From Candidatus Omnitrophota bacterium (GTDB taxonomy: Bacteria > Omnitrophota > Gorgyraeia > JAHJTE01), in contig JAHJTE010000003.1 of NCBI GenBank assembly GCA_018830005.1, positions 7,674 to 71,673 on the forward strand: a stretch of 64,000 bases of DNA, read 5' to 3'. A program made the position numbers and the translations under genes. Shown one piece after another: positions 3,922 through 51,314 of this stretch. How positions within the stretch are numbered: position 1 is the first letter of the stretch; each line of letters opens with the position of its first letter. The notes under the pieces are model-generated. The model ran no database searches and had not been told where the DNA came from. It saw only the letters and a list, made by a program, of their open reading frames with translations.

Positions 3922-4009
3922 AAAGAATTGGTACAGAGCGTATTAAAAAATCTAGTAACAATACTAGCTCATAATTTTAACCCTTCTGAATTTGCTTCTA
4001 TACAAAAAT

Positions 4010-20048: not shown

Positions 20049-21269
20049 TTAAGGAAGGTTTGAACTTAAACCTATATTAAGACCTTTAAAGACTCTTTCG
20101 AGTCTTGGCAAACTGAGGATATTCATATCTACTAAAACCTGACCTAAATGCATATTAGTATTCCAATGCCTTAAGAGCGCACTTTCCAGCTGTCGAGGAT
20201 TAATTAGTTTTTTATCTAATAATATCTGACCTAATGGCTTATAGCTCTTAGCCTTATTCTTGAGACGATTAGTTCGATGACTAGGCACCTCTTTATCTTC
20301 ATCAAAATTTTGTGCTTGTTCTTTGCTAGCTGTCTTTCTTCTATTGACCAAACTTCTGCTATGTTTGTGCTTTTTAAGATAGCTTTTAATCTCAAAAGCA
20401 ATCTCAACGAATTCAATCAAATTATTAATATTTCTATGTAAATTATTTACGATAGCGATAGATAACCCCATGAGGGGAAAATTGATTATCTTTCCTAATC
20501 TGTCCTTGATTCTTATAAAGCCTTTGTTTCTATCCAGGACAGAGTAGTGAAAAAGGATAAGCTTATCAAATTCATCAATAATGAATCGTGCAATATTTGT
20601 TTCGCGCTGCGGCTGCGTTATGACAACAAAATCATCGCCGCCAATATGAAATAGGAAATCCTCGCCCTGGCCAAATTGCTTAACCGCGGAAGTGATAATA
20701 TGAACTGTCTGCATAATAACCGCATCTCCCAACTTGTAACCATACTTATCATTAAATGATTTAAAATTATTTATATCACAATATAGAAAAGAAAGCGTCT
20801 GTTTAGCCGCTAATTTGCCCTGCACAGTCTTCTCCAACATTCTACTGCCTGGTAATTTTGATAAAGGATTGGCGAAAAATTGATGCTCCGTCCTTCGCAA
20901 GGCCATCTCTATACGCACCTCTAGATCAATTGGATCAGGAGGTTTAGTCAGATAATCATCAAGACCCTGCTCAATCTGTAAAATATCCCGACGCACATTC
21001 TTTTTTCTGATCATCAATAAGAGTGGTATGTGCGCATTATGATAATCAGATTTTAATAACTTAATAACTCCAAAGCCATCAAGACCAGGTAAATCACAAT
21101 CAATGATAATCAAATCAGGTGCAACTCTTGATATAAGCTCGAATGCTGAGGTTCCATCTTTAGTCCAGAGGACATCATATCCCCAACTCTTAATTAACAT
21201 GATAATAATCTCAGCGCAATTGGTATCGTTTGAAGCTAATAGAATTTTTTTACCTTTTGACTCTACCAT
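20049..21269 (-). CDS. response-regulator receiver + GGDEF-family domain (GGDDF variant) + C-terminal MshEN/T2SSE_N-like domain
   Basis: N-terminal REC (DLIIIDCDLPGLDG, phospho-Asp context), central GGDEF fold (DPLSKLPGSR..., HIGGDDF at about 20621-20645), C-terminal tandem LGQILLDKKLI...QLESAL / LGQVLVDMNIL...RLERVF motifs resembling the c-di-GMP-binding MshEN N-terminal domain of GspE/PilB ATPases. Confidence 0.7.
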   Translation of the reverse strand: MVESKGKKILLASNDTNCAEIIIMLIKSWGYDVLWTKDGTSAFELISRVAPDLIIIDCDLPGLDGFGVIKLLKSDYHNAHIPLLLMIRKKNVRRDILQIEQGLDDYLTKPPDPIDLEVRIEMALRRTEHQFFANPLSKLPGSRMLEKTVQGKLAAKQTLSFLYCDINNFKSFNDKYGYKLGDAVIMQTVHIITSAVKQFGQGEDFLFHIGGDDFVVITQPQRETNIARFIIDEFDKLILFHYSVLDRNKGFIRIKDRLGKIINFPLMGLSIAIVNNLHRNINNLIEFVEIAFEIKSYLKKHKHSRSLVNRRKTASKEQAQNFDEDKEVPSHRTNRLKNKAKSYKPLGQILLDKKLINPRQLESALLRHWNTNMHLGQVLVDMNILSLPRLERVFKGLNIGLSSNLP

Positions 21270-21596: not shown

Positions 21597-22016
21597 TTAT
21601 TTATTGGGTTCTTTTTTTGCCTTAGCAAAGAAATGCAAAATGGACTTTATAATATGATCAGCTTCATAAAAATCCTTTGACTTATCAAAGAAGGCATTTG
21701 CCTTTAGCCGATATGCTGCATCTCGGTTCTCTTCTGTGCCGTAAGCAGTGATCATAACCACTGGCAGCTCATCATCCATCTCTCTGATACGACGTAAGGT
21801 TTCAACCCCGTCCATCTCCGGCATACTTATATCCAGAAAAACTATGTTTGGTTTTTGCTGCTTGATAATATCAAGCGCGCCCTTGCCGTTAAAAGCTGTA
21901 CGCACCTTATAACCTTGACTCTTAAGCCAAAATTCCATTGTAGCTACAAAATCCTTTTCGTCATCCACAATAAGTATCTCGATATCTTTATTATGGTTTT
22001 CTATTTTCTTCTCCAT
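21597..22016 (-). CDS. single-domain response regulator (CheY-like receiver)
   Basis: ILIVDDE...FLDISMPEMDG...K receiver motifs, 139 aa, no output domain. Confidence 0.85.
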   Translation of the reverse strand: MEKKIENHNKDIEILIVDDEKDFVATMEFWLKSQGYKVRTAFNGKGALDIIKQQKPNIVFLDISMPEMDGVETLRRIREMDDELPVVMITAYGTEENRDAAYRLKANAFFDKSKDFYEADHIIKSILHFFAKAKKEPNK

Positions 22017-22029
22017 TTGACCTCCTTAT

Positions 22030-24357
22030 TTAATCCTTTACCTCTTTTTTCTCTTGAGTAGAAAATTTCTTAGGAAGTGTAAAACTAAAAGTACTCCCCT
22101 TTCCAATCTCGCTTTTAACCCAAATCTTTCCTTTGTGCAGCTCGACAATTTGTTTACAGATATGAAGCCCTAGGCCTGTGCCGCCTACACCGGCAGGAGA
22201 GATCAAGCTCACCTGCTCAAACTTATCAAATATTCGCTGACAATCCTTCTCCTCAATGCCTATACCATTATCAGTGATACCTACTTCAACAGCCTCAAAA
22301 CTGTTGCCTCCTGAGCCTGCTGTGATATTCTTGCAGGAAATTATAATTTTGCCTTTCTCGGCTATAAATTTAAGCGCATTGCCTATCAAATTAGTTAATA
22401 CTTGATTTATCTTGTCTCTATCTGCTTCTACATCAATCTCCTTCCCGCCTAAACTTAGATCAATTCCAATTTGTTTATCCTTAACCCAAGTATCTAGAGA
22501 TTGCATTACCTCTTGTATAAGTGTGATTAAGTTAAAGGTTGCAGGATTAATACTTATCTTGCCAGCTTCTAACTTAGAAAAATCCAATATATCATCAATC
22601 AGGCGAGAAAGTCTTGAAAGATTAGAATTAGCAATATTTAAAAACTTGTTTTGATCTTCATTTATATCTCCGCAAGCCTTAGAAATCAGAAGCGAAAGAG
22701 ATTTTTTTGTGGCGATTATCGGGGTACGCAATTCATGGCTAACATGTGCAACAAAATCTGACTTCATCTTATCCACTTGCTTTTGACGCGTTATATCACT
22801 AAGCATCATAACCATACCTACGGTATTGCCATTTTCATTCTCTACAACCGCGGTGCTGGCACGCAGAATGCGTTTGGTTTGTTCATCATTACTGCTAAGC
22901 TCAATCTCTTTGCTAACCGCTTCTGCCTCATCAGCCAAATTACCTTTAGCCAATGCAACCAACTGATGGCTGCCTAATCCTTCCTGAAGAAATTTACCTA
23001 TCTTTTCCTTCTTATCTATACCTAATAATTGCTCGGCAGCAGGGTTTATCATCATAACCTTACCTTGTTTATCTACAACAATCATGCCATCAGCAAGATT
23101 TCGTATTACTGTATCAACACGCTCTTTTTCGCCGGCAAGGCGCTTATTTTTTCTTTTCAAATCTTGTGTTGCTTTAGCAATCTCATCGAGCAAAGTCTTG
23201 TCAAAAAGCTTGGCCTTATTTTTGAGTTCTTCATATTCTCTCTTTGCTATGCTAATCTTCTTTCTAGATTCTATTGCATCTTCTAATCTTGCCAGGAGTA
23301 CATCAGAATCTGCTTCCTTTGCGCCCTTTTCTATCAATGCCGCCTTTAGATCTGGAGAAACTCTATTTAATTCTTTACTATCAATTATCAATCTCTTGCT
23401 GCGCTGCAGGAATTTGTTAAGATTAGGTTTTGTTACTTCATAAATCTTAGCTAACATATGAATTTTTAAATTATCATCAAATCCAGATATGATCTCATGC
23501 AGATTATCGATTTCCTTCTTGATCTGGCTGGCACTACTATCTGTATCGATAGACTTTACAATAGCGCGTTCTAGACTAGCAAGTATCCTATCTGGCTTGC
23601 GTTTCTTTTTTATAAGTTCATCACTAAACTCATCGATAATACATTCCCGCAGTTTAGCCAAGACCTTTGCTAGGCTGCCACAGGCAACAGCTGCCTGAAC
23701 AACGATATTGGCAAGCTGGCTAGGTTCAGATAATAGTTTTGAAATAACATCTTCTTTGTGTCTTTCTAAAATTTCTCCTGTTACTTGGCCTTGTAGATAT
23801 TGTTCAAGAATAGCCAGTTCACCTTCATGAGGAACATCCTTTTTGATCTTTTCTTTCTTCTCTAGGAATGCCTCTGCATCTTTCGTCACAGATGAAGTAA
23901 CCTTTTGGCCTTCTTCAACTTTTTCATAATGAACAACATTGGCCTTGATATGACTAAAACCATTGCTTAGAAAGGTTGTTTTAAGCTTCTCTTCATTTTT
24001 ATCCAATTTCTTGCCAATGCTTAGCAGGCTTAATAAATCAGCTAATTCTGATAATTCCATACCTTGCTTAAAAGATATGCTATCTATCTCCAATTCCCTC
24101 ATTTTATCAACCAATTCCTTAGATCCCGCCAATGTAGAAGACAGAGAGATGTCGTTTAAAATAAGTTCTTCTCCTCCAACAAAAATAGTCACCTGGGAAT
24201 TCTCTTTGAGTAGTATAGTAAGATGCTGGTAAAGCTGATTTAGCGACTCTTTAACGATAGGATGTTTTTTGGAATAAAGTGCGATTTTTTTGCTAGTTAT
24301 AAGAATTAACTTGGCAACTTCTAAGTAGACTTTATCTTTTTTGTCTTTATTCGGCAT
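22030..24357 (-). CDS. cytoplasmic PAS-domain sensor histidine kinase
   Basis: 775 aa, no N-terminal TM, PAS-like segment, H-box SHELRTP, G-boxes GGTGLGL in HATPase_c. Confidence 0.85.
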   Translation of the reverse strand: MPNKDKKDKVYLEVAKLILITSKKIALYSKKHPIVKESLNQLYQHLTILLKENSQVTIFVGGEELILNDISLSSTLAGSKELVDKMRELEIDSISFKQGMELSELADLLSLLSIGKKLDKNEEKLKTTFLSNGFSHIKANVVHYEKVEEGQKVTSSVTKDAEAFLEKKEKIKKDVPHEGELAILEQYLQGQVTGEILERHKEDVISKLLSEPSQLANIVVQAAVACGSLAKVLAKLRECIIDEFSDELIKKKRKPDRILASLERAIVKSIDTDSSASQIKKEIDNLHEIISGFDDNLKIHMLAKIYEVTKPNLNKFLQRSKRLIIDSKELNRVSPDLKAALIEKGAKEADSDVLLARLEDAIESRKKISIAKREYEELKNKAKLFDKTLLDEIAKATQDLKRKNKRLAGEKERVDTVIRNLADGMIVVDKQGKVMMINPAAEQLLGIDKKEKIGKFLQEGLGSHQLVALAKGNLADEAEAVSKEIELSSNDEQTKRILRASTAVVENENGNTVGMVMMLSDITRQKQVDKMKSDFVAHVSHELRTPIIATKKSLSLLISKACGDINEDQNKFLNIANSNLSRLSRLIDDILDFSKLEAGKISINPATFNLITLIQEVMQSLDTWVKDKQIGIDLSLGGKEIDVEADRDKINQVLTNLIGNALKFIAEKGKIIISCKNITAGSGGNSFEAVEVGITDNGIGIEEKDCQRIFDKFEQVSLISPAGVGGTGLGLHICKQIVELHKGKIWVKSEIGKGSTFSFTLPKKFSTQEKKEVKD

Positions 24358-24463: not shown

Positions 24464-25198
24464 CTACCTCTTAAGCTGACTGGTCAAAACAATCGCATCT
24501 GCTATTTCGCGCATTGATCTGCGTGTATCCATGCTTGTTTTCTGAATCTTACGGAATGCATCCTCTTCGCTTAACCCTTCCTGGCGCATTAATATGCCCT
24601 TAGCACGCTCTACAACCTTTCTCGTAGCCAGCTCTTCTTTGATGATGCTAGACTCTACTATGACCCTGGCATGTTCAATGGCAACAGCTGCCTGATTAGC
24701 CACAGTAGTCAGGACCTTTACTTCAGCATCACTAAACTTGCGGGGCTTTGACGTGTATAAATTAATTACTCCGATGGCCTTATCTTTAATGCTTAATGGC
24801 ACACTTAAAAGAGAGCATAGATTTTCAGTCTTAGCAATATCACGATTGAGATAACGCTGATCTTTCTTAACGTTATGTGCTATTATCGGTCTGTTTTCCT
24901 TCGCCACCAGACCAGCTATGCCTTCACCAAGTTTTATATTCGGCTTCTTGTTATATAAAGGGCTGATTGATTGTGTGGCGCGCACTACCAATTCGCTCCT
25001 AGATTCGTCTAAAAGCATCAAAGAACAAATCTTCGAATTCATAATCTCCGCCGTTACCGTTACAATCAATCGTAAGATATCTGTCAGATAGAGATGTGAG
25101 GTAATAGCCTGGCTTATTTCAGATATTGCCTTTAAGGCTTGAGGGCTTACTGCGGAACTCCTTGTAGATTTTCTTTCTTTTCGGATTCTTCTTCCCAT
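24464..25198 (-). CDS. GAF-ANTAR RNA-binding antitermination-type regulator
   Basis: N-terminal GAF domain, C-terminal ANTAR helix motif (RAKGILMRQEGLSEEDAF...IADAI); overlaps upstream PilP-like gene by about 50 bp. Confidence 0.75.
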   Translation of the reverse strand: MGRRIRKERKSTRSSAVSPQALKAISEISQAITSHLYLTDILRLIVTVTAEIMNSKICSLMLLDESRSELVVRATQSISPLYNKKPNIKLGEGIAGLVAKENRPIIAHNVKKDQRYLNRDIAKTENLCSLLSVPLSIKDKAIGVINLYTSKPRKFSDAEVKVLTTVANQAAVAIEHARVIVESSIIKEELATRKVVERAKGILMRQEGLSEEDAFRKIQKTSMDTRRSMREIADAIVLTSQLKR

Positions 25199-25689
25199 AG
25201 TCTCAGCATAAATTTCTCGCCACCACTTTCAAGCACAACAAAATTAGCTCTAATATCTTTAATGGTAAATCCGGAAATCTTATCACCCGCTTTTAAATTT
25301 TCTTCGTTAATTACAGCTATTGAATCTTTAGGATTATCTTCAGAAATAATCATACCCGAAAGTTCCAATTTTGAAATTTGTTCCATTTTTGCTACCCAAT
25401 TCTGATCTGAAGAACCGCCGAGACTCCTTTTATCCAAAACAAAAGGGTCTCTACCCCAGTCTAAATCTTTGACATCATAGACGTCTTCCTTTTTTGCTGT
25501 ATCTTTAACAGACGTCTTAAAATAAACTAATTCTTTGCTTGACTCATCTTTATCTATGACTTGCGCTGGCGCCGATTTGGGACGCTGCGGCCGGCTGCGA
25601 GTAAACTTTTTTATAGTAGCAAAAACAGCAATTATCGCTATTGTAACAACTATCACTGCAATAATAAGTTCTTTTTGTTGTTTATCCAT
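25147..25689 (-). CDS. PilP/GspC-like protein (paralog 1)
   Basis: N-terminal TM anchor, conserved DWGRDPFVL motif shared with the 39780-40202 paralog, C-terminal beta-rich domain; follows PilO-like gene. Confidence 0.45.
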   Translation of the reverse strand: MDKQQKELIIAVIVVTIAIIAVFATIKKFTRSRPQRPKSAPAQVIDKDESSKELVYFKTSVKDTAKKEDVYDVKDLDWGRDPFVLDKRSLGGSSDQNWVAKMEQISKLELSGMIISEDNPKDSIAVINEENLKAGDKISGFTIKDIRANFVVLESGGEKFMLRLWEEESEKKENLQGVPQ

Positions 25690-26342
25690 TATTTTCTTTT
25701 TTTTCTTTTTAAATGCAGATCGACTCCTTTTTCTACATCTGCTTCTAAATTGAGGGCGCCTCCATGCGAAAGGACAAAGGCCCCAAGTAACAACTCAATT
25801 TCTAATTCTGAAGCCGAACCTTTTAGCTTGCTTATCTTTAACTCATCAAAACTAAAGGCATATTGTGTGTTCTCAAACATAACCTTTAAGAACTCTGTCA
25901 AAGGACGATATCCTGCATTCAATTTTAATTTGATAGGCACTTTATTGAAGATAAGGTCGCTTTTGGTATCTGTTTGTGATTCATATCTCATCGCCTTATC
26001 CGGTTCGATAGAGATAATTTCTATATTAAATTTATCTGCCTGATTAAATAGTTCCTGAAACATACCAGGAAGTTCATTCTGAGAAGGGAATTTATCTTGA
26101 AGTTTCGTAACCTCGGCTTGCATTTTGGCGATTTCTTTCTCATAGCCTTCTGCCTTTACCCTGACCTCCTCTTCCTTAATGTTGATATCAAAATCCTTAA
26201 CCTTTTGCAAAATGCTGGTAATATCGCGTCTTTTTGGCAAATATAAGAATTGCCAGAATATAAAAACAACTATAAACATTATTCCGGCAGAAATCAAAAT
26301 TATGACCTGACGTTTATCAATATTAAATTTTGTGGTGTTCAT
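25689..26342 (-). CDS. PilO/GspM-like bitopic protein (paralog 1)
   Basis: Short cytoplasmic N-terminus, single TM, coiled coil then periplasmic domain; 217 aa; translationally coupled to PilMN and PilP-like genes. Confidence 0.55.
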   Translation of the reverse strand: MNTTKFNIDKRQVIILISAGIMFIVVFIFWQFLYLPKRRDITSILQKVKDFDINIKEEEVRVKAEGYEKEIAKMQAEVTKLQDKFPSQNELPGMFQELFNQADKFNIEIISIEPDKAMRYESQTDTKSDLIFNKVPIKLKLNAGYRPLTEFLKVMFENTQYAFSFDELKISKLKGSASELEIELLLGAFVLSHGGALNLEADVEKGVDLHLKRKKRK

Positions 26343-27946
26343 TCTATTTTTGATAGTTCAACCGTTAACTTAAAATCAATGGCTTCTAGTTGGTCTATCT
26401 CTTCTTTTATGGTCAAGAGGAGATTTACATTATTAAAATAAGGCGAATTCTCTAATTTGAGTAAGAAATCAGCGAGGTAATTTTCAGCTGAGTCTCCAGA
26501 GGCAAAACTCAAACCTCTGATAAAAAATACCGCCTCCTTTTTAAAGAATTCCATATCTAAGAATTCAATGGATCTGGGTATGATTCGACTCAATTCTTTG
26601 AGATAAACGAAAAGTTCTAACTCTGTTCCGATGATCTCCTTAAAGAATCTCTGTCTCTCTATAATATTATCCCTTAATGTCCTCAGTTTTACAAGATTAC
26701 TGTAATAATCATTGTAGGAAGTAAGTATCTTCTGGTAGCGCTTTAATTGTACTGTCATTGAAAGAAAACTAAATATCATCAACACCAACAGGACAGGAGC
26801 GATAATCCGTAATATCTTCTGTTGTATGCCAATTGTCTTTTGAATCTTTACTGATTTAGGCAAGAGATCTACTGTGTCACCTTTTCCTAAACATACACCA
26901 ATACTAGCAGCAAGTGTTGGTAGGATATTCGATAAATCTTTACCCTTAGGAATCTTAGAGGTAATATTGCTGGGCAGGGTTATAAGCTTAGTAGGAATGC
27001 CACCTAAGCCATCACTTACAAAATCAGTCAGATTTTTCAAGTTCGCCCCACCGCCGGCTAGAAAAACCTGATCAATTGCATCAACTTGGAATTCCTCACG
27101 GAAATATCTAAAAGAGCTGCGTATGTCAGTTAAGAGTCTTTCTAAAATCGGCCGCATCAAGACTGAAATCTGCGATAAGGGTATATCCTGAAAACTCGAG
27201 TTGACTTGTGATTTTGCTGGAATGCCGCATTCTCTTTTTATTTCCTCTGCCTTCTTTGCATCCAGCTCTATTTTTTTAGGAAAGGTAACCACAACACCAC
27301 TTAAGGCGCGAGTAAAGCTATCCGAGGCTGTGGTAATCTTTCGAATAAATTGCAGTGTCGCCCCTTTAAAAATTAAAATATTTGTCTTATTTAGACCGAT
27401 GTCAATAACTGCACTTACCTTCTGCACCATTTCCTGCTCTTTCTGCGCAATAAGGTTTGCCAAAGCGAAATGACTTATCGTAATAAATGCTGGCTCAACA
27501 CCTGCTGCTTGCAGCGATTTTACGTGCCTGTCAATTAACGTATTATGAACCGCTACCGCTAATATCTCATTGCGTTTTATTCCATCGCTGCCAGTAATAG
27601 TGTTTAATATTTTTAAGTCAATTTTGCTCTCATCTAAGTTAAAATTTGTCACTTCCTTTAATGACCAGCGCACTGCATCGCGTAAATCTTCCTTGGGCAT
27701 AAAAGGAACAATGGAACGCTTTAAAACTATGTCCTGGCCAGAGACTAAGGAATAAACTTGCGATTCTGCAGTTCCTAATTCTTCTAATACTTCCTTCAAT
27801 AGCGATTGCTTAACTTCGTCGCTAGATTCAGAACCAAACTCTTTAATCACAAAATCCAAGATATCGATTCGGCCATCGCTTCTTTCAATCTTTACGGCCT
27901 TAATTGAATATTGACCTATATCTATACCGATTAAGTATTTTTCCAT
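26339..27946 (-). CDS. PilM-PilN fusion (GspL-like architecture), paralog 1
   Basis: N-terminal actin-like PilM domain (IGIDIGQYSIKAV...), TM helix at about residue 380, then PilN-like periplasmic tail; 535 aa. Confidence 0.7.
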   Translation of the reverse strand: MEKYLIGIDIGQYSIKAVKIERSDGRIDILDFVIKEFGSESSDEVKQSLLKEVLEELGTAESQVYSLVSGQDIVLKRSIVPFMPKEDLRDAVRWSLKEVTNFNLDESKIDLKILNTITGSDGIKRNEILAVAVHNTLIDRHVKSLQAAGVEPAFITISHFALANLIAQKEQEMVQKVSAVIDIGLNKTNILIFKGATLQFIRKITTASDSFTRALSGVVVTFPKKIELDAKKAEEIKRECGIPAKSQVNSSFQDIPLSQISVLMRPILERLLTDIRSSFRYFREEFQVDAIDQVFLAGGGANLKNLTDFVSDGLGGIPTKLITLPSNITSKIPKGKDLSNILPTLAASIGVCLGKGDTVDLLPKSVKIQKTIGIQQKILRIIAPVLLVLMIFSFLSMTVQLKRYQKILTSYNDYYSNLVKLRTLRDNIIERQRFFKEIIGTELELFVYLKELSRIIPRSIEFLDMEFFKKEAVFFIRGLSFASGDSAENYLADFLLKLENSPYFNNVNLLLTIKEEIDQLEAIDFKLTVELSKIE

Positions 27947-27953
27947 ACTAGCC

Positions 27954-28343
27954 CTATTTCAATAACTCGTTTATTTTCTCTAACAAAGTTTCTGGTCTTT
28001 CTGATTTTACTATATAACAATCTGCACCCATATCTTTACCCAGTTGTCTATCCTCATTCTGGCCCCTGGCAGTAAGCATAATAATCGGGATCATACGATA
28101 TTTCTCATCAAATTTTAGAAATCTGCACACCTTATAACCATCCATCTTAGGAAGCATTAAATCCAGAACAATCAAATCAGGTTTTTCGCTCCTTGCCACA
28201 TTTAAACCTTCTTGTCCGTCAATAGCAACTAAGACAGTAAAATTATTTGCCTCAAGCATTGCCTTAATTGCCATTAAAAAATCAGGCTCATCATCAACAA
28301 CAAGAATTCTTTTTTTGGTATTTCCTTTATCTTCTGTCATCAC
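27954..28343 (-). CDS. single-domain response regulator (CheY-like receiver)
   Basis: ILVVDDEPDF...LDLMLPKMDG receiver motifs, 129 aa, 4-bp overlap with upstream histidine kinase. Confidence 0.85.
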   Translation of the reverse strand: MMTEDKGNTKKRILVVDDEPDFLMAIKAMLEANNFTVLVAIDGQEGLNVARSEKPDLIVLDLMLPKMDGYKVCRFLKFDEKYRMIPIIMLTARGQNEDRQLGKDMGADCYIVKSERPETLLEKINELLK

Positions 28344-30049
28344 TTGCCCTCTTTCTTCGTTAATACCTTATTCGCCTCGTTCACTAGCTCGGTCTCGTTA
28401 AGCGCATCATCAGGATAAGTTACAACACCAATCTCAAAATTTAATTTTATTCTACCGCTGGAGGTATTAAACTCAGGCTTTTCCAAAGACTCTCTTACGC
28501 GACCCGCTAAGGCATATGCACCTTCCTTATTGGTATCGGCTAAGATTGCTAGAATTTCTCCTTTTTTGAATCTTATCACAACATCATTAGGCCTGCGCAC
28601 TGTTTTCTTGACAATTGCCTCTAATTCAAACATAAGCCCTAAAATTTCGTCACGTGATAATCGTGTCTTAACTTTAGAGAAATTCTCTACAGCTAATACT
28701 ACCAATGATAAAGAATTATGTTCAGAGCGTGCGCGATTAATCTCATCAGAAACACGTTCAAAGAAATGCTCCTCTTCGTTGAAAATCGGCAGCGTAAAGA
28801 AAAAACTACTTCCCTTATTTAGTTCAGACTCGGCCCAGATCTCACCCTTATGAAGCTTAAGGATCTCCCGGGAGATTGCCAGCCCTAATCCTGTGCCTTT
28901 CTCTCTCTGAGGCAGGTCCCTGTCTAGCTGCTCGAATTTACTAAAAATCTTTTCAATGCTATCAGGCTCAATACCTTTACCAGTATCAGTAACTTCTACC
29001 CGCAAGTATTTTCTCTCTTGGCCCTTTGCTATGGATTTGCTAATAGTCTTTGCGTCTAACAAGACCTTACTGTTCTTTGGGCTGAATTTTATTGCATTAC
29101 CTATTAGATTAGTAAAAACCTCTATAATCCTTTCCCTATCCGCATATATATCGGGTGTTTCTTTAGGAATCCTATTTTCAACATCTATTTGCTTCTCTAG
29201 TAATAATCCCTCGAATGTACGCAAGACCTCAGTTGAGAGATCTGCCATCTTAATCTTTAACCTTTTTAAATCAAATCTACCAGCTTCGATACGAGAGAGT
29301 GAAAGTAAGTTATTAATTAAGCGCGTAAGTCTTTCAATATTAGAATCCATCAACTGCAGGTAGTCTCTCTGCTGTTTATTTATTGCTCCTGCTGCCTCTT
29401 TCAACATTAAAGAAGTAAAGTATCTGCAAGTAGCTAAAGGCGTTCCTAATTCGTGAGAGACATTAGCAACAAAATCAGATTTTAGGAGGTCCAGTTCTTT
29501 CAGCCGCTCATTTGCGCTTAACAATTCCTGGTAAAGACGTGCATTAGAAACAGCTATCGAGGCCTCATTTGCTAAAGCACTTAAAAGCTCTAAATCATCC
29601 TTAGTAAAAATCCTCTTGCCGCGCTTGTTATTGACATTAAGAACGCCGATTACCTGGTCTCTCGCCTTCAAGGGGACACTTAATAGCGACTGGTTATAAT
29701 ATTTACCCTTTTCGCGCGGCCGAAAGCGTCGATCTTTTGATATATCATTGATAAGTAAAGGTTTACCTGTTTTTGCCACCCAACCAGAAACGCCCACACC
29801 TATTTTAACTATCGCCTTTTTTATAACCTCTCTGCTTATACCCTTGGCATACTCTATCCTCAATTCTTTCTTTTGCTTATCCAGAAGCATTAAAGATGAA
29901 CGCTCCACATTTAAGACTTCGACGGTATTGTCAATGATCGATTTAAGGCAACGCTTTAATCCTAGATTAGAGTTTACCTCCTTGGCAATCTTAAAAAGGA
30001 TTTCCAGCCACTGAACCTTATTCTTGAGGTTTCCTTTACTCTTTGGCAT
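28340..30049 (-). CDS. cytoplasmic GAF sensor histidine kinase with C-terminal degenerate GGDEF-like domain
   Basis: GAF domain, H-box SHELGTP, HATPase_c G-boxes (GTGLGLAI), C-terminal about 150 aa with GGDEF-fold spacing but KKGEIL in place of GGDEF. Confidence 0.75.
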   Translation of the reverse strand: MPKSKGNLKNKVQWLEILFKIAKEVNSNLGLKRCLKSIIDNTVEVLNVERSSLMLLDKQKKELRIEYAKGISREVIKKAIVKIGVGVSGWVAKTGKPLLINDISKDRRFRPREKGKYYNQSLLSVPLKARDQVIGVLNVNNKRGKRIFTKDDLELLSALANEASIAVSNARLYQELLSANERLKELDLLKSDFVANVSHELGTPLATCRYFTSLMLKEAAGAINKQQRDYLQLMDSNIERLTRLINNLLSLSRIEAGRFDLKRLKIKMADLSTEVLRTFEGLLLEKQIDVENRIPKETPDIYADRERIIEVFTNLIGNAIKFSPKNSKVLLDAKTISKSIAKGQERKYLRVEVTDTGKGIEPDSIEKIFSKFEQLDRDLPQREKGTGLGLAISREILKLHKGEIWAESELNKGSSFFFTLPIFNEEEHFFERVSDEINRARSEHNSLSLVVLAVENFSKVKTRLSRDEILGLMFELEAIVKKTVRRPNDVVIRFKKGEILAILADTNKEGAYALAGRVRESLEKPEFNTSSGRIKLNFEIGVVTYPDDALNETELVNEANKVLTKKEGK

Positions 30050-30144
30050 TAAAGGAGTTAAATCAAAGATTCAAAAAATACAATACTAAAACTACCTATA
30101 GACTATGTTTTGAATTTATCACAGGCAGAGGCAAAAGTCAAGAT

Positions 30145-32193
30145 TTACTTGAAATCTGGAATCCGCAGTTGCTTCAAAAAGTTCGGATCAACTTTATACC
30201 CATATTTTAACGCCAGCTTTGCGTGTTTTCTGGCTAAATCATTTTCCGGAGGTTCTAAGTTTGCATAGGTCACTGCAAGATTGTTATGCGCTGCTGCAAA
30301 TTTAGGCTCTAAACTAATGGCTTTCTTAAAGGCCTCTACTGCTCTTTTATCACCCAGCTCGCCATAGACAATACCAAGTTTATAATAATCTAAGGCACTG
30401 CCATTTAATAGCTCCAAGGCTCTACTTTTAAAGTAAACAGCTTCTCCTAAATTGCCTAATTTTTCATAAATAAACGCCAATCCAATATATGGTTTACTGT
30501 AATCAGGATTCACCTTTATTGCTGTTTTTAATGTCTCTATTGCTAGATCAATTTCCCCTTCATAATAATATGAAACTCCTAAATTATTATAAGCCAAAAC
30601 AAAAGAAGGATCTAATTCTATAGCCCGCTTAAGATGGTAAATTTCTTTGTCTCTCAAGCCTTTCTTAGCAAAAAGAAGGCCTAAATTATTATGTATTTCA
30701 GCTATATTTGGATTAATAGCCAGCGCCTCTCTAAGATGCTCTTCTGCTAAATCAAAATCATCTTTTTCTAGATACGTGCTAGATAAATTCAGATGAAGAC
30801 GAATCTTTAAAGCTCTAGGAATTATTGGTCTCTTCTTAATCTCTTCCAATGCTATAATAAAATAATTCTCAGCCTCATTTATCTTGCCTTTATTTAATGC
30901 TGCCAGACCTAAATTATTATATCCAGCCATAGAACTCGGCGAGCACCCAACATTATTTAGCCAAAGAGAATATTCATCTTTCCAGATATTATTGCGTCTA
31001 ATTGTCAAAACTGAAAAGAAGATGAGAATGACTGTCGCAACACTAGCTATTAATATCTTCAATGCCTGTTTTTTCCTTGCCTCTACAATATAAAATAACC
31101 TTTCCAAAAATAAAGTAATAGCAATAAATATTCCGATTGCTGGCAAATATAGATGCTGCTCAGCGGCAAGTAGGCTAAGCGTTGCTATAAATTTTGGCAA
31201 AAGATTTACAAAGAACCAAAGAATCGCAAAGCTCAATAACGGGAGTCTTTTATAGGAAGCAATAGAAATAGATATAAGACTAATAATTACTAAGAATGAC
31301 TGCAGGGCATCAGGATTCAACAATGAGCTAAATTCAGGAAAACGTCTTCCTATGCACAAATTGAGAGGGCAGAAAAACAACTTCAAATAAAAAACGCTGA
31401 CATGTAACTGCGTGAAGAAATTTGAATAGAGGCTACGTCGCAGGCCACCGATGTTGGCAATTGCGCCGAAAAGATGGTATTTTAATAAGAGATAAATTAA
31501 AACTACAAAAATAAATAAAAAATAGCGTTTTATAGATGCCTGGGTATCTTTAAGATTATCTTTGCGAAATAAAAAATCATAAACTAGTAAAATAAGAGGA
31601 AAAACAATTATGACCTCTTTGGTCAGTAGGCCTAAGATAAAGACAGCTAAAGAGATCCAGTATGCTTTATCAAAACGGCCAAAGTTACTATGAATGTAGG
31701 AAATTAATCCTACAAGAAAGAAGAAACTCGAAAGCAAAGTTGAGCGACAAGATATATAGATTACTGCTTCAGAATTTATCGGATGAACTACAAACAAAAG
31801 ACTAGTTAAAAATGAAGGCCAAAAAAAGTTATTTTGTAAAAGGGAGCGCAGCAAGAAAAAAACTAAAACAGCATTTAAGAAATGAATAGCAATATTGATT
31901 ATATGATAGCCGGTAGGATTAAGCCTGCCAAAGAAATAATTAAAGACAAATGTCAGCATTAAAAATGGTCGATACATCCCCTTGGCAATCGGAACGGAAG
32001 TCATTTTACCAGATGTAAACAACATATAGACTTTATTAAAATCTTTTATAAAATTATTCTTCACTATCATGCGGCCGTCATCAAAAACAAAAGGAACAGA
32101 CAGGCTTTTAGAATAAAGTACAAAGCATACCAAAAATATAATAATAACCGCAAGGTATTCTTTGTTTCGGTTAAGTAATTTATTTTCCAGCAT
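30145..32193 (-). CDS. polytopic membrane protein with C-terminal TPR repeats (GT-C / PMT_2-like candidate glycosyltransferase)
   Basis: About 11 N-terminal TM helices followed by about 8 TPR units (AxxYNNLG... repeats); 682 aa. Confidence 0.55.
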   Translation of the reverse strand: MLENKLLNRNKEYLAVIIIFLVCFVLYSKSLSVPFVFDDGRMIVKNNFIKDFNKVYMLFTSGKMTSVPIAKGMYRPFLMLTFVFNYFFGRLNPTGYHIINIAIHFLNAVLVFFLLRSLLQNNFFWPSFLTSLLFVVHPINSEAVIYISCRSTLLSSFFFLVGLISYIHSNFGRFDKAYWISLAVFILGLLTKEVIIVFPLILLVYDFLFRKDNLKDTQASIKRYFLFIFVVLIYLLLKYHLFGAIANIGGLRRSLYSNFFTQLHVSVFYLKLFFCPLNLCIGRRFPEFSSLLNPDALQSFLVIISLISISIASYKRLPLLSFAILWFFVNLLPKFIATLSLLAAEQHLYLPAIGIFIAITLFLERLFYIVEARKKQALKILIASVATVILIFFSVLTIRRNNIWKDEYSLWLNNVGCSPSSMAGYNNLGLAALNKGKINEAENYFIIALEEIKKRPIIPRALKIRLHLNLSSTYLEKDDFDLAEEHLREALAINPNIAEIHNNLGLLFAKKGLRDKEIYHLKRAIELDPSFVLAYNNLGVSYYYEGEIDLAIETLKTAIKVNPDYSKPYIGLAFIYEKLGNLGEAVYFKSRALELLNGSALDYYKLGIVYGELGDKRAVEAFKKAISLEPKFAAAHNNLAVTYANLEPPENDLARKHAKLALKYGYKVDPNFLKQLRIPDFK

Positions 32194-32260
32194 CTTCTAT
32201 TAAATTTTCACTAAATTATCTTTCGGGCCCAGAAGGAAACTCGAATAATTATATTTATTA

Positions 32261-33115
32261 CTAGGGATTATTTTCGGTACGATCAAGCCGTAGCTGCGCA
32301 ATCTGTTCAGAGATAAGCCCGAGCATAAATATAGTTATGCTTGATGTAAAAAGTAGAGCAGACATATTAGTAAAACTGTGGAAGGAAATAAAAGTGTAGA
32401 GGTAATTGCCCATCCCCAAAAAAAACAATAAAAAGCTAATCGGAAGAAATACCCTAAAGGGCGAAAAGACTGTAGCAATCTTTGCAATTATCAGTAAAAA
32501 TCGTATACCATCAGATAAGGGCTTTATTTTGCTTTTTCCTTTTCTGGCGAGTGCAGTTATTGGAACATACTTAATACTTCTGCCGCTACGAAGTATTGCC
32601 AAAGTAAGGGTAGTAGGATAAGAAAAGCCATTAGGTAAAAGGTAGAGAAATTTTAAAGCCAAATCTTTTCTTATCACCCTAAAACCAGATGTTAAATCCT
32701 GTATCTTAAACCTTGTTACATAGCTTGCAAACCAATTATAAATTATGTTAGCTGTTCTGCGAGCTGGTGCATGAGAATCTTTACTTCTTGCTCCTACAAC
32801 CATATCATATTTATCAATATATTCTAAAATCCTGGCTATATCAGCAGGGTTATGCTGTCCATCGCCATCCATGAATACTAATATGTCTGCCTTGGCTACT
32901 CTTATGCCTGTTTTTACGCTAGCGCCATTACCCATACGATAGGGATGGCTTATGACAAGTGCTCCAGAATCTCTAGCAACCTTGGCGCTATTATCAGAAG
33001 AACAATCATCTACAACTAAAATCTGGAATTCCTTTTTTATACTATTTTTTATTTCTTTTATAACCTGACTAATGTTCTCTTCTTCGTTAAAGATTGGTAA
33101 AATTATATCTATCAT
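32261..33115 (-). CDS. family 2 glycosyltransferase, GtrB/ArnC-like polyprenol-phosphate sugar synthase
   Basis: N-terminal GT2 motif (ILPIFNEE...VVDDCSSD), DxD, two C-terminal TM helices typical of GtrB/ArnC. Confidence 0.8.
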   Translation of the reverse strand: MIDIILPIFNEEENISQVIKEIKNSIKKEFQILVVDDCSSDNSAKVARDSGALVISHPYRMGNGASVKTGIRVAKADILVFMDGDGQHNPADIARILEYIDKYDMVVGARSKDSHAPARRTANIIYNWFASYVTRFKIQDLTSGFRVIRKDLALKFLYLLPNGFSYPTTLTLAILRSGRSIKYVPITALARKGKSKIKPLSDGIRFLLIIAKIATVFSPFRVFLPISFLLFFLGMGNYLYTFISFHSFTNMSALLFTSSITIFMLGLISEQIAQLRLDRTENNP

Positions 33116-33148
33116 CTTTAGCTATTACTTAACTTCCTTTATTCTAAC

Positions 33149-33176
33149 AAAAAGGGGAGAAAAAAACCTCCCCTTT
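33149..33176 (-). terminator. rho-independent terminator after pilin gene (bidirectional-capable)
   Basis: AGGGGAG-8nt-CTCCCCT hairpin flanked by an A-run and a T-run, located 60 bp beyond the pilin stop codon. Confidence 0.6.
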
Positions 33177-33235
33177 TATCTTCAAATTAAAAATCCGTTC
33201 GCTCTAAAACCAAAGCAACATAACTAAATAAAAAA

Positions 33236-33592
33236 TTACGGCCAGGCTAAACCACCGCCAGCAGTACCTATTGTACCGGTGGCAGGATTGTAAGTCCAAT
33301 TAAATGTGCCGGCTGCAACCCCTGTGCTAGCTGTCAACTGAGTTAAGTCCGTATCTAACTGAGCGATTAAAGCAACATCACTAGCAGGAAATACAGGATT
33401 ACCCGCAACAGCGCCAGAGGCATAGAATAATTGGGCTGAAGCGCGCAAAGCACCCAATTCGGCCATTGCAGTTGCCTGTCTTGCATCATCAGCCAAGTTA
33501 ACAAATCTTGGAACAGCAACAGCGGCTAAAATTGCTAATAATGCCAGGACTATAACTAATTCAATTAATGTAAAACCGCTTAATCTATTCAT
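33236..33592 (-). CDS. type IV pilin (major pilin paralog)
   Basis: Class III signal MNRLSG|FTLIELVIV (Gly-1, Glu+5), hydrophobic alpha1 helix, Thr/Gly/Ala-rich C-terminal tail; N-terminus near-identical to the pilin at 45084-45533. Confidence 0.85.
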   Translation of the reverse strand: MNRLSGFTLIELVIVLALLAILAAVAVPRFVNLADDARQATAMAELGALRASAQLFYASGAVAGNPVFPASDVALIAQLDTDLTQLTASTGVAAGTFNWTYNPATGTIGTAGGGLAWP

Positions 33593-33771
33593 CAGATCTC
33601 ACCTCCCTCACAAAACATAATTATTACTAACTTAACATCCAAGTAGAAACTTGTCAAGATTTTTTTCTCAATAACATTAATTAAAGTATAGCCTAAAAAA
33701 ATACCTATTGCAAGCAAAATTGTCAATAATTATAACTCGTTGAAAAATAAGGAATTGGAAAAGAAGTTACT

Positions 33772-34542
33772 TTATGCTTGCCTCTTTTTAAATCTTCTCC
33801 TTATCTCTTCTTTTATTAAATCTGAGCCTGTAAAAACACCTAAAAGAAGAGAAAAACCAGTAATTAATATCCTGTCTAAAATAGCTAAAGACAAGGCAAC
33901 GTTAAGGCTAAGGCCGTTTTCCATTAACAGTAAAACCAACCCTGTATCTTTAAATCCTAAGCCAGCAGGTGCGGGAGATAAATACCCCAAGACAAAGGAC
34001 ATGGAGATAATCTTTAAAATATCTAAAAAATGGGGATGAAAATTAAAAAATTCAAAAAGTAAATAATAATAGAGAACTACCAATGCCATATTCAAAATAA
34101 CAAACGGCAGGATGCAAAAAACGCTTTTTAGCTTTTCCTTAAAATATCTTAAGGCCTCTCTTATTGATAAAGCAAGTTTGTGCTTTCTTCTTGCAACTAT
34201 TATCAATAAAAGAATTAATATTATTACAAATGCTAAAGGAACCCTCCTGATGAATCCCGCCCCAAAGTAGGCGCCAAGGAGGAGCCACAATGATACGGAA
34301 AGAAACTCTAGAATAATAAAGGCACTTAAGGCATTGGGGAAGGCTAACTTTTTATGTCGAGAAAAATAACTGCTTACAATATAGCCTGCACCTGTAAAAA
34401 GACATTTATTCAGGGCCCTGGCAAGACAAGTTAATTTAAAGGATTCGCCTAACTTTATCTCTTTTCCAAGCAGGATATAAAAATTTAGGGCTTGAATAAT
34501 GGAAATTAAAAACAGGATTAAAATAATAAAGAATGTTCCCAT
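33772..34542 (-). CDS. polytopic membrane protein (hypothetical; possibly flippase-like / UPF0104-like)
   Basis: 256 aa, about 8 TM helices; lies in the glycan gene neighbourhood. Confidence 0.4.
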   Translation of the reverse strand: MGTFFIILILFLISIIQALNFYILLGKEIKLGESFKLTCLARALNKCLFTGAGYIVSSYFSRHKKLAFPNALSAFIILEFLSVSLWLLLGAYFGAGFIRRVPLAFVIILILLLIIVARRKHKLALSIREALRYFKEKLKSVFCILPFVILNMALVVLYYYLLFEFFNFHPHFLDILKIISMSFVLGYLSPAPAGLGFKDTGLVLLLMENGLSLNVALSLAILDRILITGFSLLLGVFTGSDLIKEEIRRRFKKRQA

Positions 34543-34660
34543 AACAAAGGTTAAAAAATCGAGTCCTTAAACACTCTCAGATACGGAAAGAAGAAATAGT
34601 CCTTTATCTATTATACCATCAGAAAAAGCAGAGTTAAGAAATTTCTAAATAAATCCAACC

Positions 34661-34689
34661 TTGACTACTCTTGTTTAGGAGCCTAAAAT
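34661..34689 (+). promoter_or_regulatory. sigma70-type promoter candidate for FkbM methyltransferase gene
   Basis: TTGACT-17 bp-TAAAAT 50-80 bp upstream of the ATG, with AAGGAG RBS at 34723-34729. Confidence 0.5.
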
Positions 34690-34738
34690 AGCTGTTAGAA
34701 TTAACTAACTACAAGCTTATATAAGGAGATATCATCCC

Positions 34739-35617
34739 ATGCTAGAAATCAGTACAATTAAAGACGCAATATTTATCTTGAAAAGATTTGGGATAAGACA
34801 TGCTTTCGGAAGATTCGAAGATTTAGTCTTAATTAAAAAAGAAGAAAGAAGAAAAAACAAATTATATAAAAAATTAAAGCCGCAAGGAAGATTAAGGAAG
34901 AATATACTTGGAAACACAATGCAATTAGATATGAATGACTTTGGAATACATAGGGATTTATTTCTAGATGGAATCCGAGAGCCGCAGGCTACGCAACATT
35001 TAATGCAGCTCTTAGGTAAAGATGATATAGTCCTAGAGGTGGGAGCCAATATTGGCTATTATGTTCTTATAGAATCTCGACTCTGTAAAAAGATTTACGC
35101 CGTTGAGCCAATAACTGAAAATATAAATAATCTAAAGATAAATATTGAATTAAACCAATGCAGGAATGTAGCGGTATTTCAAACAGCCTTTGGTGCTGAA
35201 AGAACCAAAAAAACTATGTATATATCAAAAAAAAGTAACTGGCACAGTTTCTATCCTAAAAAGAATATAATAAAAAAACTATCTGTTGAAATGGATAGCG
35301 TTGATAATTTTCTTAAAGACAAGGAGAAACCTACTTTTCTACGTATGGATGTTGAGGGATACGAACTGAATATATTAAAAGGCATGCAGGAAACCTTAAA
35401 AAATATAAAAAGATTATTTATTGAGGTGCATGCCGATATATTAGCATTAGAAGAAACGCAAGAATTGATCGAGATCTTAAGAAAAAATTCATTTCGGCCT
35501 GAATTAATAATTAAATATGACCGGCCTAAATTCTCTAAAATTCTACCTAATGATTATATCAATAAGATTTATGACGGAGACAAAGGAGGCTATGAAATAT
35601 TTTTTTCTAAATTCTAA
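34739..35617 (+). CDS. FkbM-family SAM-dependent methyltransferase
   Basis: VLEVGANIGYY SAM-binding motif characteristic of the FkbM domain, 292 aa. Confidence 0.75.
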   Translation: MLEISTIKDAIFILKRFGIRHAFGRFEDLVLIKKEERRKNKLYKKLKPQGRLRKNILGNTMQLDMNDFGIHRDLFLDGIREPQATQHLMQLLGKDDIVLEVGANIGYYVLIESRLCKKIYAVEPITENINNLKINIELNQCRNVAVFQTAFGAERTKKTMYISKKSNWHSFYPKKNIIKKLSVEMDSVDNFLKDKEKPTFLRMDVEGYELNILKGMQETLKNIKRLFIEVHADILALEETQELIEILRKNSFRPELIIKYDRPKFSKILPNDYINKIYDGDKGGYEIFFSKF

Positions 35618-35628
35618 GGCTGACTACT

Positions 35629-39779: not shown

Positions 39780-40202
39780 TTATAGTCTCAATTCAAATTC
39801 CTTTTCGCCATCATGTAGTATAACACGATCTTTAAGAATATCCACTACTTCATTGCCTTCGACTCTATCTCCAACTCTCACTATTTCTTCGTTGATAATA
39901 GCCTGAGGAGAATCAGCGTCCCAAAGGATACCTATGAGATTTAACCCAGTCACAGCGGTTATCCCCTCAGCCAAAACAAAAGGATTTCTACCCCAGTCTT
40001 TAAACTCGCTATCATTTCTCTTTTTGATCTCTTTCTTACCCCAGAAAACGAACCTGCTTGCAATATCTTCTTCTCTGGAAACTGATGCTGCTTCACCAGG
40101 ATAGGTCTTCACTCGCCTAACATTCTTAAATAAAGAAACCCAGACAAAAATCATTATTATAATTAAAATTCCTAAGATTATATTCCGGATATTTTTACCC
40201 AT
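39780..40202 (-). CDS. PilP/GspC-like protein (paralog 2)
   Basis: N-terminal TM anchor, DWGRNPFVL motif shared with 25147-25689, C-terminal beta domain; 140 aa. Confidence 0.45.
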   Translation of the reverse strand: MGKNIRNIILGILIIIMIFVWVSLFKNVRRVKTYPGEAASVSREEDIASRFVFWGKKEIKKRNDSEFKDWGRNPFVLAEGITAVTGLNLIGILWDADSPQAIINEEIVRVGDRVEGNEVVDILKDRVILHDGEKEFELRL

Positions 40203-40203
40203 G

Positions 40204-40725: not shown

Positions 40726-40734
40726 TGGAAAGAA

Positions 40735-51253: not shown

Positions 51254-51314
51254 GAATACAGCAAGTTCATTTGGCCTTATTTTTCAGTTATTATAACACC
51301 TTACTTGCGTTAAA

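Follow-up and report, generated by a model that had tools for sequence, protein, structure and literature searches.

A six-gene pilus operon headed by signaling genes in an Omnitrophota genome, read as the probable split half of a second type IV filament machine

The window analyzed here is a 64,000-nucleotide (64-kb) stretch of contig JAHJTE010000003.1 (assembly GCA_018830005.1, Candidatus Omnitrophota bacterium), and its subject is a minus-strand operon of six genes. These encode a histidine kinase (HK), a CheY-like receiver (REC_a), a PilM-PilN fusion (MN2), a PilO-like protein (O2), a PilP/GspC-like protein (P2) and a GAF-ANTAR regulator. The operon is best read as one part of a second type IV filament machine, a split-off half with regulators at its head. 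With moderate confidence, we take MN2-O2-P2 to be the inner-membrane alignment subcomplex of this machine, called machine B, which would be divided into an assembly ATPase and platform pair (E1-F1), an island containing the pilin, and the promoter with the HK operon behind it; the kinase and receiver would be ancestral parts of the arrangement. The other machine, machine A, lies in the same window with an ATPase, platform and alignment set of its own (E2, F2, MN1, O1 and P1).

All six open reading frames (ORFs) are present, and Pfam agrees with the domains assigned to them in a preliminary description of the locus. That description placed the unit at 25147-30049; the upper end holds, but the lower end omits most of the ANTAR gene, and the true span is 24464-30049. 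It also recognized a GAF-type kinase while overlooking the GGDEF-like domain at its C-terminus. The genes are tightly packed, with overlaps of 4 nt at HK/REC_a, 4 nt at MN2/O2, 1 nt at O2/P2 and 52 nt at P2/GAF-ANTAR, and a 7-nt gap at REC_a/MN2. Upstream lies a promoter (TTGACT-17-TGaTAAATT) that is invariant across five genomes in an alignment where the surrounding intergenic DNA has diverged. A generic promoter and terminator scan of 19.5-39 kb performed no better than shuffled background, and only the two promoters with cross-genome conservation were used; the promoter of the HK operon was flagged by the generic scan as well. As proposed earlier, the six genes look like one transcription unit, and the unit itself indeed contains no ATPase, platform protein, pilin or secretin.

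The gene order is conserved among related Omnitrophota. The series HK-REC-PilMN-PilO-PilP-ANTAR-PAS_HK-REC-REC_GGDEF is kept in every contig long enough to show it (L001, L002, L004, L005 and L088/L089), and synteny of the block extends to at least seven related contigs; L003, a truncated contig with the same sequence as L002, shows the order only as far as PilO. Seven other Omnitrophota proteins are orthologous to the PilMN fusion, at 56-63% identity. Identities to the window genes are 70-72% for HK, 84-87% for REC_a, 59-63% for MN2 and 76-78% for GAF-ANTAR, and 46-87% at the protein level for the block overall. The arrangement exceeds chance, and since gene order and upstream promoter are both conserved, the six genes are a real, promoter-headed, selected unit.

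Profile searches bear out the pilus identities of the 535- and 217-aa proteins and point to a PilP/GspC-like one for the 180-aa protein. MN2 matches PilM_2 (PF11104) over residues 7-352 with 98 bits against a cutoff of 27, and NCBIfam TIGR01175 (pilM) with E=7e-37 and 127 bits, under that model's cutoff of 133. Its match to PilN (PF05137) is marginal, at 23.6 bits against 22.8; the PilN motif reads VDLLPKS in MN2 and INLxP in the consensus of its orthologs, and a hydrophobic helix comes after it. O2 matches PilO (PF04350; E=3e-7, 31.1 bits against 22) and has a visible N-terminal hydrophobic helix. The C-terminal ~50 residues of P2 match T2SSB (30.5 bits against 28.4), CdsD_C and T2SSC, the last under its cutoff. 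P2 also matches NCBIfam GspC_delta over residues 7-173 with E=2.5e-9, but with 37 bits against a cutoff of 150, and its family profile matches the GspC HR domain (PDB 2LNV, E=0.0013). An AF2 model of the 180-aa P2, for which the alignment consisted of the in-window paralog, had a pLDDT of 43, too poor for a fold test.

A second, paralogous PilMN-PilO-PilP set had also been noted, and it exists at 39780-42438. MN1 is 25% identical to MN2 over its full length, and the 140-aa ORF at 39780-40202 (P1), which has no Pfam match, is a paralog of P2 (E=2e-14); O1 and O2 share no significant BLASTP similarity. Identities to close relatives are 56-63% for MN2, 56-60% for O2 and 46-49% for P2, and 50-54%, 45-46% and 45-48% for MN1, O1 and P1, so that the two sets appear to evolve at similar rates.

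Both sets belong to one co-directional superlocus of ~30 kb (window ~20-52 kb). Along the direction of transcription, with coordinates decreasing, it begins with a PG-binding protein, X194, X707, E2 (T2SSE), F2 (T2SSF), a GspG-like pseudopilin, two N-methyl pseudopilins and a GspK-like protein. These are followed by MN1, O1, P1, E1 (T2SSE) and F1 (T2SSF), and then by an epimerase, a plus-strand methyltransferase, an LPG-synthase-like membrane protein, a 118-aa pilin, a family 2 glycosyltransferase (GT2), a polytopic TPR protein and the HK operon. Two T2SSE, two T2SSF, two PilMN, two PilO and two P genes are thus present, all on one strand. In the relatives L085 and L087 the order is E2-F2-pseudopilins-K-MN1-O1-P1-E1-F1-pilin-GT2-PMT_2, then a TPR protein and the HK operon, with the pilin directly after F1. 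The view of the MN2-O2-P2 module as an orphan is not supported by this context, in which the operon follows E1-F1, the pilin and a glycosylation island in close relatives. The island between F1/pilin and the HK operon (window 30145-36720) varies among L001, L002, L004, L085 and L087 and always ends with the polytopic TPR protein; across relatives it holds GT2, GT4 and PMT_2 GT-C proteins, methyltransferases, an epimerase and an LPG-synthase-like protein, and is plausibly a pilin-glycosylation island.

The assignment of scaffolds to motors draws on L086, a cluster from a more distant member of the Omnitrophota with the order HK-REC-REC-E-F-G-psp-psp-x-MN-O-P, beyond which the genes are unrelated. 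The closest window counterparts of its E, F, MN, O and P proteins are E2, F2, MN1, O1 and P1, and neighbor-joining trees place L086 with E2, F2 and MN1 at bootstraps of 73, 99 and 100 of 100. Because L086 is a self-contained MN1-type cluster with one E/F pair, machine A needs only one, and its assignment is well supported. E1, F1 and the pilin would then be left without an alignment complex unless MN2-O2-P2 serves them, and MN1 orthologs share contigs with MN2 orthologs in relatives. Pairing MN1-O1-P1 with E1-F1, in the MSH-like order I-J-K-E-G, was rejected because of the L086 cluster. The assignment of MN2-O2-P2 to machine B is thus made by elimination, and we hold it with the same moderate confidence as the explanation of which it forms part. 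It comes close to one idea in the preliminary description, a scaffold that gates the motors of the other locus.

Single-copy clusters from Thermodesulfobacteriota/Syntrophaceae (L007-L019) resemble the machine B set. Their platform proteins score 327-347 bits with F1 vs 250-276 with F2, their PilMN proteins 179-204 bits with MN2 vs 130-173 with MN1, and their receivers 129-140 bits with REC_a vs 72-79 with REC_b, the receiver downstream of the operon; PilO matches O2 only. In the trees, F1 falls with platform proteins from MSH-like clusters that have a secretin, at bootstraps of 80-85 of 100.

MN2-O2-P2 might instead be an alternative, signal-controlled alignment complex that replaces MN1-O1-P1 on either or both motors, for example as a switch between secretion-like and pilus-like modes. 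The two sets are distant paralogs retained in parallel, a promoter of its own precedes the MN2 operon, and the two ATPases, E1 and E2, are 52% identical without resolving phylogenetically. However, F1 and F2 are only ~31-32% identical and, like MN1 and MN2, fall in different clades, which points to co-diverged, dedicated partner sets, and L086 carries the MN1 type with one E/F pair alone. We consider such an exchange of scaffolds unlikely.

The kinase-receiver pair most likely represents an ancestral companion of this class of machine, with no new wiring, as judged from its orthologs. The Thermodesulfobacteriota clusters have the order HK-REC-F-pseudopilins-PilMN fusion-PilO-PilP-Secretin-AAA_22-TPR-T2SSE, and REC_a is 53-56% identical to the 123-aa receivers that head them. 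HK and REC genes are also found within the Omnitrophota clusters L086 and L035. The window kinase has no transmembrane (TM) segment and an intact H-box (SHELGTPL), and in REC_a, which lacks an output domain, the acidic pocket and the phospho-acceptor Asp (LIVLDLMLPKMDG) are both present. In the C-terminal domain of HK (window 28340-28750) the GGDEF active site is degenerate (KKGEI), with an RxxD motif (RPND) exactly five residues upstream, as in an I-site: RPND-VVIRF-KKGEI. Thermodesulfobacteriota orthologs (L008, L009, L011 and L017) have the same layout, RKAD-ILLRR-EKEKI. The kinases share the HisKA-HATPase core and GGDEF-like domain and differ in the N-terminal sensor, GAF vs REC. This suggests a conserved kinase in the pilus clusters of Omnitrophota and Thermodesulfobacteriota that may act as a receptor for cyclic di-GMP (c-di-GMP). 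To our knowledge, from a check that was not exhaustive, this pairing of a degenerate-GGDEF kinase with a CheY-like receiver has not been described before. In Myxococcus xanthus, the type IVa pilus (T4aP) cluster contains pilR1S1 and pilR2S2 (PMC6060248). With this precedent and the orthologous HK-REC pairs that head complete, secretin-containing clusters in Thermodesulfobacteriota, the wiring is a conserved feature, and the earlier statement that it matches no canonical layout was too strong.

These observations also bear on a proposal from the preliminary description, that the module is a sensory or regulatory derivative. MN2-O2-P2 would then no longer build a filament and would act as an envelope-spanning sensor or scaffold feeding the kinase, receiver and ANTAR protein. 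The unit does have its own promoter with signaling genes at its head, its GAF-ANTAR gene and three more signaling genes lie downstream, and the window offers no secretin partner for the HR-type domain. On the other hand, the soluble kinase lacks a TM segment that could couple it to a membrane scaffold; in other phyla, complete filament machines are headed by this HK-REC pair; E1-F1-pilin would have no alignment complex; and the lack of a secretin is common to machine A, hence not specific to the MN2 module. The HK H-box, the receiver Asp and the INLLP-type motif of MN2 are all intact, and the substitution rates and motifs of MN2, O2 and P2 resemble those of the machine-embedded paralogs. The proposal found no specific support, and we think it quite unlikely.

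If the operon does encode the alignment subcomplex of machine B, the soluble kinase would sense a ligand through its GAF domain and might also sense c-di-GMP at the RxxD of its degenerate GGDEF domain, as SgmT of M. xanthus, a c-di-GMP receptor with the layout GAF-HK-REC-GGDEF, does (PMC3509222). It would phosphorylate the single-domain receiver. Because REC_a has no DNA-binding output, the phosphorylated form is proposed to act post-translationally on the PilM ring, the ATPase or the platform, at the cytoplasmic side of the machine, and to switch assembly on or off, like a CheY of the PilG/PilH type. Tight translational coupling would deliver regulator and scaffold together, and the downstream PAS-HK, REC_b and REC-GGDDF proteins may feed the same second-messenger circuit.

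Neither machine has a recognizable secretin in the window. A secretin ORF lies downstream of PilMN in 58 of 80 loci of other genomes, mostly right after PilO and PilP. A profile built from 59 such secretin ORFs had no match when run against all six reading frames of the window (best E=0.11) and against the L001-L005, L085-L087 and L035 loci, which leaves the HR-type proteins of both alignment sets with no cognate secretin in the window or in the loci of close relatives. Pfam searches of all window ORFs of at least 110 aa detected no prepilin peptidase (A24) or PilT, and neither is linked to either machine in the clade (window 1-64000; L001-L005 and L085-L087). The description of the machine A region as a complete pilus locus therefore fails; measured against a complete T4aP or type II secretion system (T2SS) locus, the 64 kb supply ATPases, platforms, pilins and alignment sets, with secretin, A24 peptidase and PilT not found. 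Omnitrophota are uncultured and mostly ultra-small, and type IV pili have been proposed to serve in host attachment (PMC10066038); no entry for pilQ, a secretin or pilM appears in the supplements of the Omnitrophota paper.

The position usually held by gspC and gspD in T2SS operons is occupied by a block of three minus-strand genes (window 48577-51731) encoding a PG_binding_1 protein, X194 (a weakly BamD/YbgF-like TPR protein) and X707, and the block is kept directly upstream of E2 in L085 and L087. A protein search found only five members of the family of X707 (locus tag KJ593_06835), with no Pfam, NCBIfam or PDB sequence match. The AF2 model of X707 (pLDDT 57) shows a TM helix and a long array of beta-hairpins, and Foldseek against the PDB gave weak matches to ApoB and LptD-like sheets at TM-scores of 0.25 or less. 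X707 as a divergent secretin was rejected, with an hhalign probability of 0.4% and no family or PDB match.

Several points weigh against our assignment of the operon to machine B. Its pairing with E1-F1 draws on elimination and synteny; MN2 is placed weakly in its tree (58 of 100 with L006), and E1 and E2 do not resolve relative to outgroups. Between MN2-O2-P2 and E1-F1 lie 8.9 kb with a plus-strand gene among them, and the operon has a promoter of its own, which weighs against taking co-regulation with the motor for granted. Within the window and the relatives' loci searched, neither machine has a linked secretin, and we know of no role for an HR/PilP-type domain other than binding the N0 domain of a secretin. 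The MshEN c-di-GMP motif is absent from E1 and E2, and binding of c-di-GMP by HK is predicted from a four-residue motif.

The GAF-ANTAR gene occupies the slot in which related clusters encode the secretin. Its ANTAR domain is clear (PF03861, 79 bits against a cutoff of 27.3; PDB Rv1626, E=7.6e-11, with NasR also matched). Its presence in the pilus operon, as first described, is real, but the link is confined to this clade. A metagenome scan returned more than 250 GAF-ANTAR relatives, of which 80 were fetched at 56-78% identity; ~75 of the 80 loci have no pilus linkage, and ~40 adjoin nitrogen-assimilation genes. Elsewhere the gene (56-69% identical), often as a tandem pair, lies in operons with glutamine synthetase (GS), glutamine-dependent NAD synthetase (NadE) and subunits of glutamate synthase (GOGAT). 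The gene is near filament genes only in the window clade (L088/L089) and in L146/L147. In the latter (L146:3985-7267 and L147:5459-8741) a 57% identical GAF-ANTAR lies 540 nt downstream of a T2SS-like F-G-...-K-L-M cluster, an adjacency that is either an independent link between filament and ANTAR genes or a coincidence.

The GAF-ANTAR genes of nitrogen operons adjoin an RNA leader of ~80 nt, always on the sense strand (L090-L167; e.g., L113:975-1054, L118:1593-1675 and L090:8875-8954). It consists of a first hairpin with a T-tract, a hairpin AGAAC-AAnGGC-GTTCT, a variable hairpin with compensatory changes, and AGAACGCC-TTTTT. The hexaloop of the AGAAC hairpin carries the A-N-N-G signature of ANTAR targets, and base-pairing of the AGAACGCC segment with GGCGTTCT can produce an intrinsic terminator that the hexaloop hairpin overlaps. 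A covariance model (R1, from alignment A8) run on 48 loci gave 31 matches at E<=1e-3, every one in sense orientation; 13 of these lie outside the seed, upstream of NadE, GltD, LuxR-type and ~410-440-aa genes. Neighbors of the leader overall are GS, NadE, GltB/GltD, LuxR-type and possibly Amt-like genes. No Rfam family matches the element, a candidate ANTAR leader RNA.

No such leader was detected in the window. With filters off, R1 gave nothing credible there (best E=0.11, within the H+-PPase gene) and no match in close relatives; an Rfam search of the window found no match, and strict and relaxed scans for dual A-N-N-G-N-N hexaloops found no target hairpins near the locus. The sole intergenic match to the relaxed dual-hairpin pattern (window 3952-4006, minus strand; stems 5 and 5, gap 23), between the OmpA-family and undecaprenyl-diphosphate synthase genes, is probably chance. 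Given the family's nitrogen operons and the lack of the leader in the window, the GAF-ANTAR protein is most likely a nitrogen-assimilation antiterminator captured into the operon in one Omnitrophota clade, with its RNA targets elsewhere in the genome.

A local role, in which GAF-ANTAR regulates pilus genes by antitermination into the downstream signaling genes or at pilin or motor leaders, would fit its overlap of 34-52 nt with P2 in all clade members, which implies co-expression, and the second lineage in which a GAF-ANTAR gene follows a T2SS-like cluster. We nevertheless regard it as improbable: neither the leader nor dual hairpins accompany the locus, the spacer between ANTAR and PAS_HK is not conserved, and most metagenomic relatives are not linked to pili. 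We found no paper linking ANTAR to type IV pili. A more speculative scenario, which we consider a long shot, is that a nitrogen-status antiterminator in the secretin slot couples expression of the machine B scaffold with the nitrogen regulon, both machines working without a classical secretin and possibly with X707, a beta-rich protein restricted to the clade, as an envelope component. Coupling of this kind could provide, for example, starvation-triggered attachment to a host or partner.

Comparison with known systems shows mixed affinities. Like the PilM-PilN-PilO-PilP complex of the T4aP in Pseudomonas aeruginosa and M. xanthus, the module has, in the same order, an actin-like PilM, a bitopic PilN with an INLLP-type motif, a bitopic PilO and a small periplasmic protein with a predicted beta-domain. 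It differs in the fusion of PilM to PilN, in having a TM-anchored, GspC-HR/GspB-like fourth protein and not a PilP lipoprotein, in the lack of a following pilQ, and in the HK, REC and ANTAR genes that lie within the operon. The genes of the Vibrio mannose-sensitive hemagglutinin (MSH) pilus are ordered MshI-J-K-L-M-N-E-G, with MshI a PilM-PilN-type fusion followed by PilO-like and PilP-like genes, and the Thermodesulfobacteriota cluster order matches MshI-J-K-L-M-N-E. L011 and L006, relatives of MN2 outside the clade, have fusion-PilO-PilP-secretin-AAA_22-TPR-T2SSE with an MshEN domain. In contrast, the window has neither secretin nor AAA_22 protein; MN2-O2-P2 is followed by GAF-ANTAR, and MN1-O1-P1 by E1. 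No window protein, the two ATPases included, matches the tandem 24-residue c-di-GMP motif of MshE in its strict or relaxed form (both from PMC5013675).

The T2SS offers parallels as well, in that GspL corresponds to a PilM+PilN fusion and GspM to PilO, P2 matches GspC models, and machine A has the order E-F-G-...-K-L-M. Unlike the T2SS, the window has no GspD, P2 has no PDZ or coiled-coil C-terminus as in GspC, and all NCBIfam scores are far under equivalog cutoffs. In the Pil-Chp system, the single-domain receivers PilG and PilH tune T4P extension and retraction post-translationally. The Pfam searches of the window revealed no CheA, CheW, MCP or CheB/R, and the partner of REC_a would be a classical HisKA kinase. 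M. xanthus has pilS2-pilR2 just upstream of pilMNOPQ. PilS/PilR and M. xanthus PilS2/PilR2 likewise are a kinase and response regulator encoded within a pilus cluster and required for pilus function (PMC6060248), but PilR-type proteins are NtrC-class sigma-54 activators, whereas the 129-aa window receiver lacks any output domain and a promoter of the -35/-10 (sigma-70) type precedes the pilin gene. The likeness of HK to SgmT is one of domain layout (GAF-HisKA-HATPase-degenerate GGDEF with RxxD), not of direct sequence comparison; SgmT is a hybrid kinase that contains a receiver of its own and partners with a DNA-binding regulator, DigR. GAF-ANTAR resembles the antiterminators AmiR, NasR, EutV and Rv1626 in the fusion of ANTAR to a sensor domain (PMC12591593), and its family in having nitrogen-assimilation genes with a hexaloop-hairpin/terminator leader as usual neighbors; it departs from them in lying inside a pilus operon, with no target RNA detected nearby.

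On this reading the clade would encode two distinct filament machines, a pilin-glycosylation island would divide one of them, and a kinase with a c-di-GMP-receptor-like domain and a CheY-like receiver would accompany this machine class across phyla. The two-machine layout and the kinase-receiver pair provide testable handles on the control of attachment in Omnitrophota cells, and an orphan sensory PilMNOP is removed as a false lead. The puzzles that remain are the lack of a secretin linked to either machine, X707 in the gspD position and the nitrogen-type antiterminator in a pilus operon.

Features of the superlocus, with window coordinates, strand and basis of each assignment
Feature	Coordinates	Strand	Basis
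HK, soluble histidine kinase: GAF, HisKA, HATPase_c, C-terminal degenerate GGDEF	28340-30049	-	Pfam, ortholog alignment
REC_a, stand-alone CheY-like receiver (Response_reg), 129 aa	27954-28343	-	Pfam
MN2, PilM-PilN fusion: actin-like PilM, VDLLP linker motif, TM helix, periplasmic PilN	26339-27946	-	Pfam, NCBIfam, ortholog alignment
O2, PilO-like bitopic protein	25689-26342	-	Pfam PF04350
P2, TM-anchored GspC-HR/PilP/GspB-C-type protein, 180 aa	25147-25689	-	Pfam T2SSB, NCBIfam GspC_delta, profile vs PDB
RNA-binding GAF-ANTAR regulator; 52-nt overlap with the end of P2	24464-25198	-	Pfam, PDB matches, family context
Sigma-70-type promoter of the HK operon: TTGACT, 17 nt, extended -10 TGaTAAATT	30113-30141	-	Five-genome alignment
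Machine A: PG-binding protein, X194, X707, E2, F2, GspG-like and two minor pseudopilins, GspK-like, MN1, O1, P1	39780-51731	-	Pfam, NCBIfam
E1, machine B assembly ATPase	38048-39757	-	Pfam
F1, machine B platform	36821-38035	-	Pfam
Pilin promoter TTGACA-17-TGtTAAGTT, conserved	33629-33657	-	
Candidate machine B major pilin, 118-aa type, prepilin signal MNRLSG/FTLIELV (cleavage at slash); strong GGAGGTGA ribosome-binding site	33236-33592	-	
Terminator-like hairpin after the pilin	33156-33173	-	
GT2 glycosyltransferase	32261-33115	-	Pfam
Polytopic membrane and TPR protein	30145-32193	-	Pfam
PAS-HK	22030-24357	-	Pfam, synteny
REC_b	21597-22016	-	Pfam, synteny
94-aa two-TM ORF resembling a DUF4190 gene annotated at the same position in L002	21292-21576	-	
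REC-GGDEF, GGDDF signature	20049-21269	-	Pfam, synteny

PAS-HK and the genes after it may share the transcript of the six-gene unit, although the spacer between ANTAR and PAS_HK varies from 25 to 248 nt or holds an inserted gene. The C-terminus of the REC-GGDEF protein (window 20049-20250) has two tandem 24-residue "xLGQxLxD..." repeats with a 5-residue spacer, resembling the MshEN layout. MshEN-type c-di-GMP binding at this site was rejected, as the tandem scores of 9/11 and 8/11 were the same as those of an unrelated H+-PPase segment. Small inserted genes occur in the pilus clusters of relatives (L001:11635-11895, L001:7415-7786, L085:14452-14832 and L086:6085-6468). They encode an 86-aa GIY-YIG protein between PilMN and PilO and four-helix 23S_rRNA_IVP (PF05635) proteins between E and F or ahead of HK, and look like mobile insertions.

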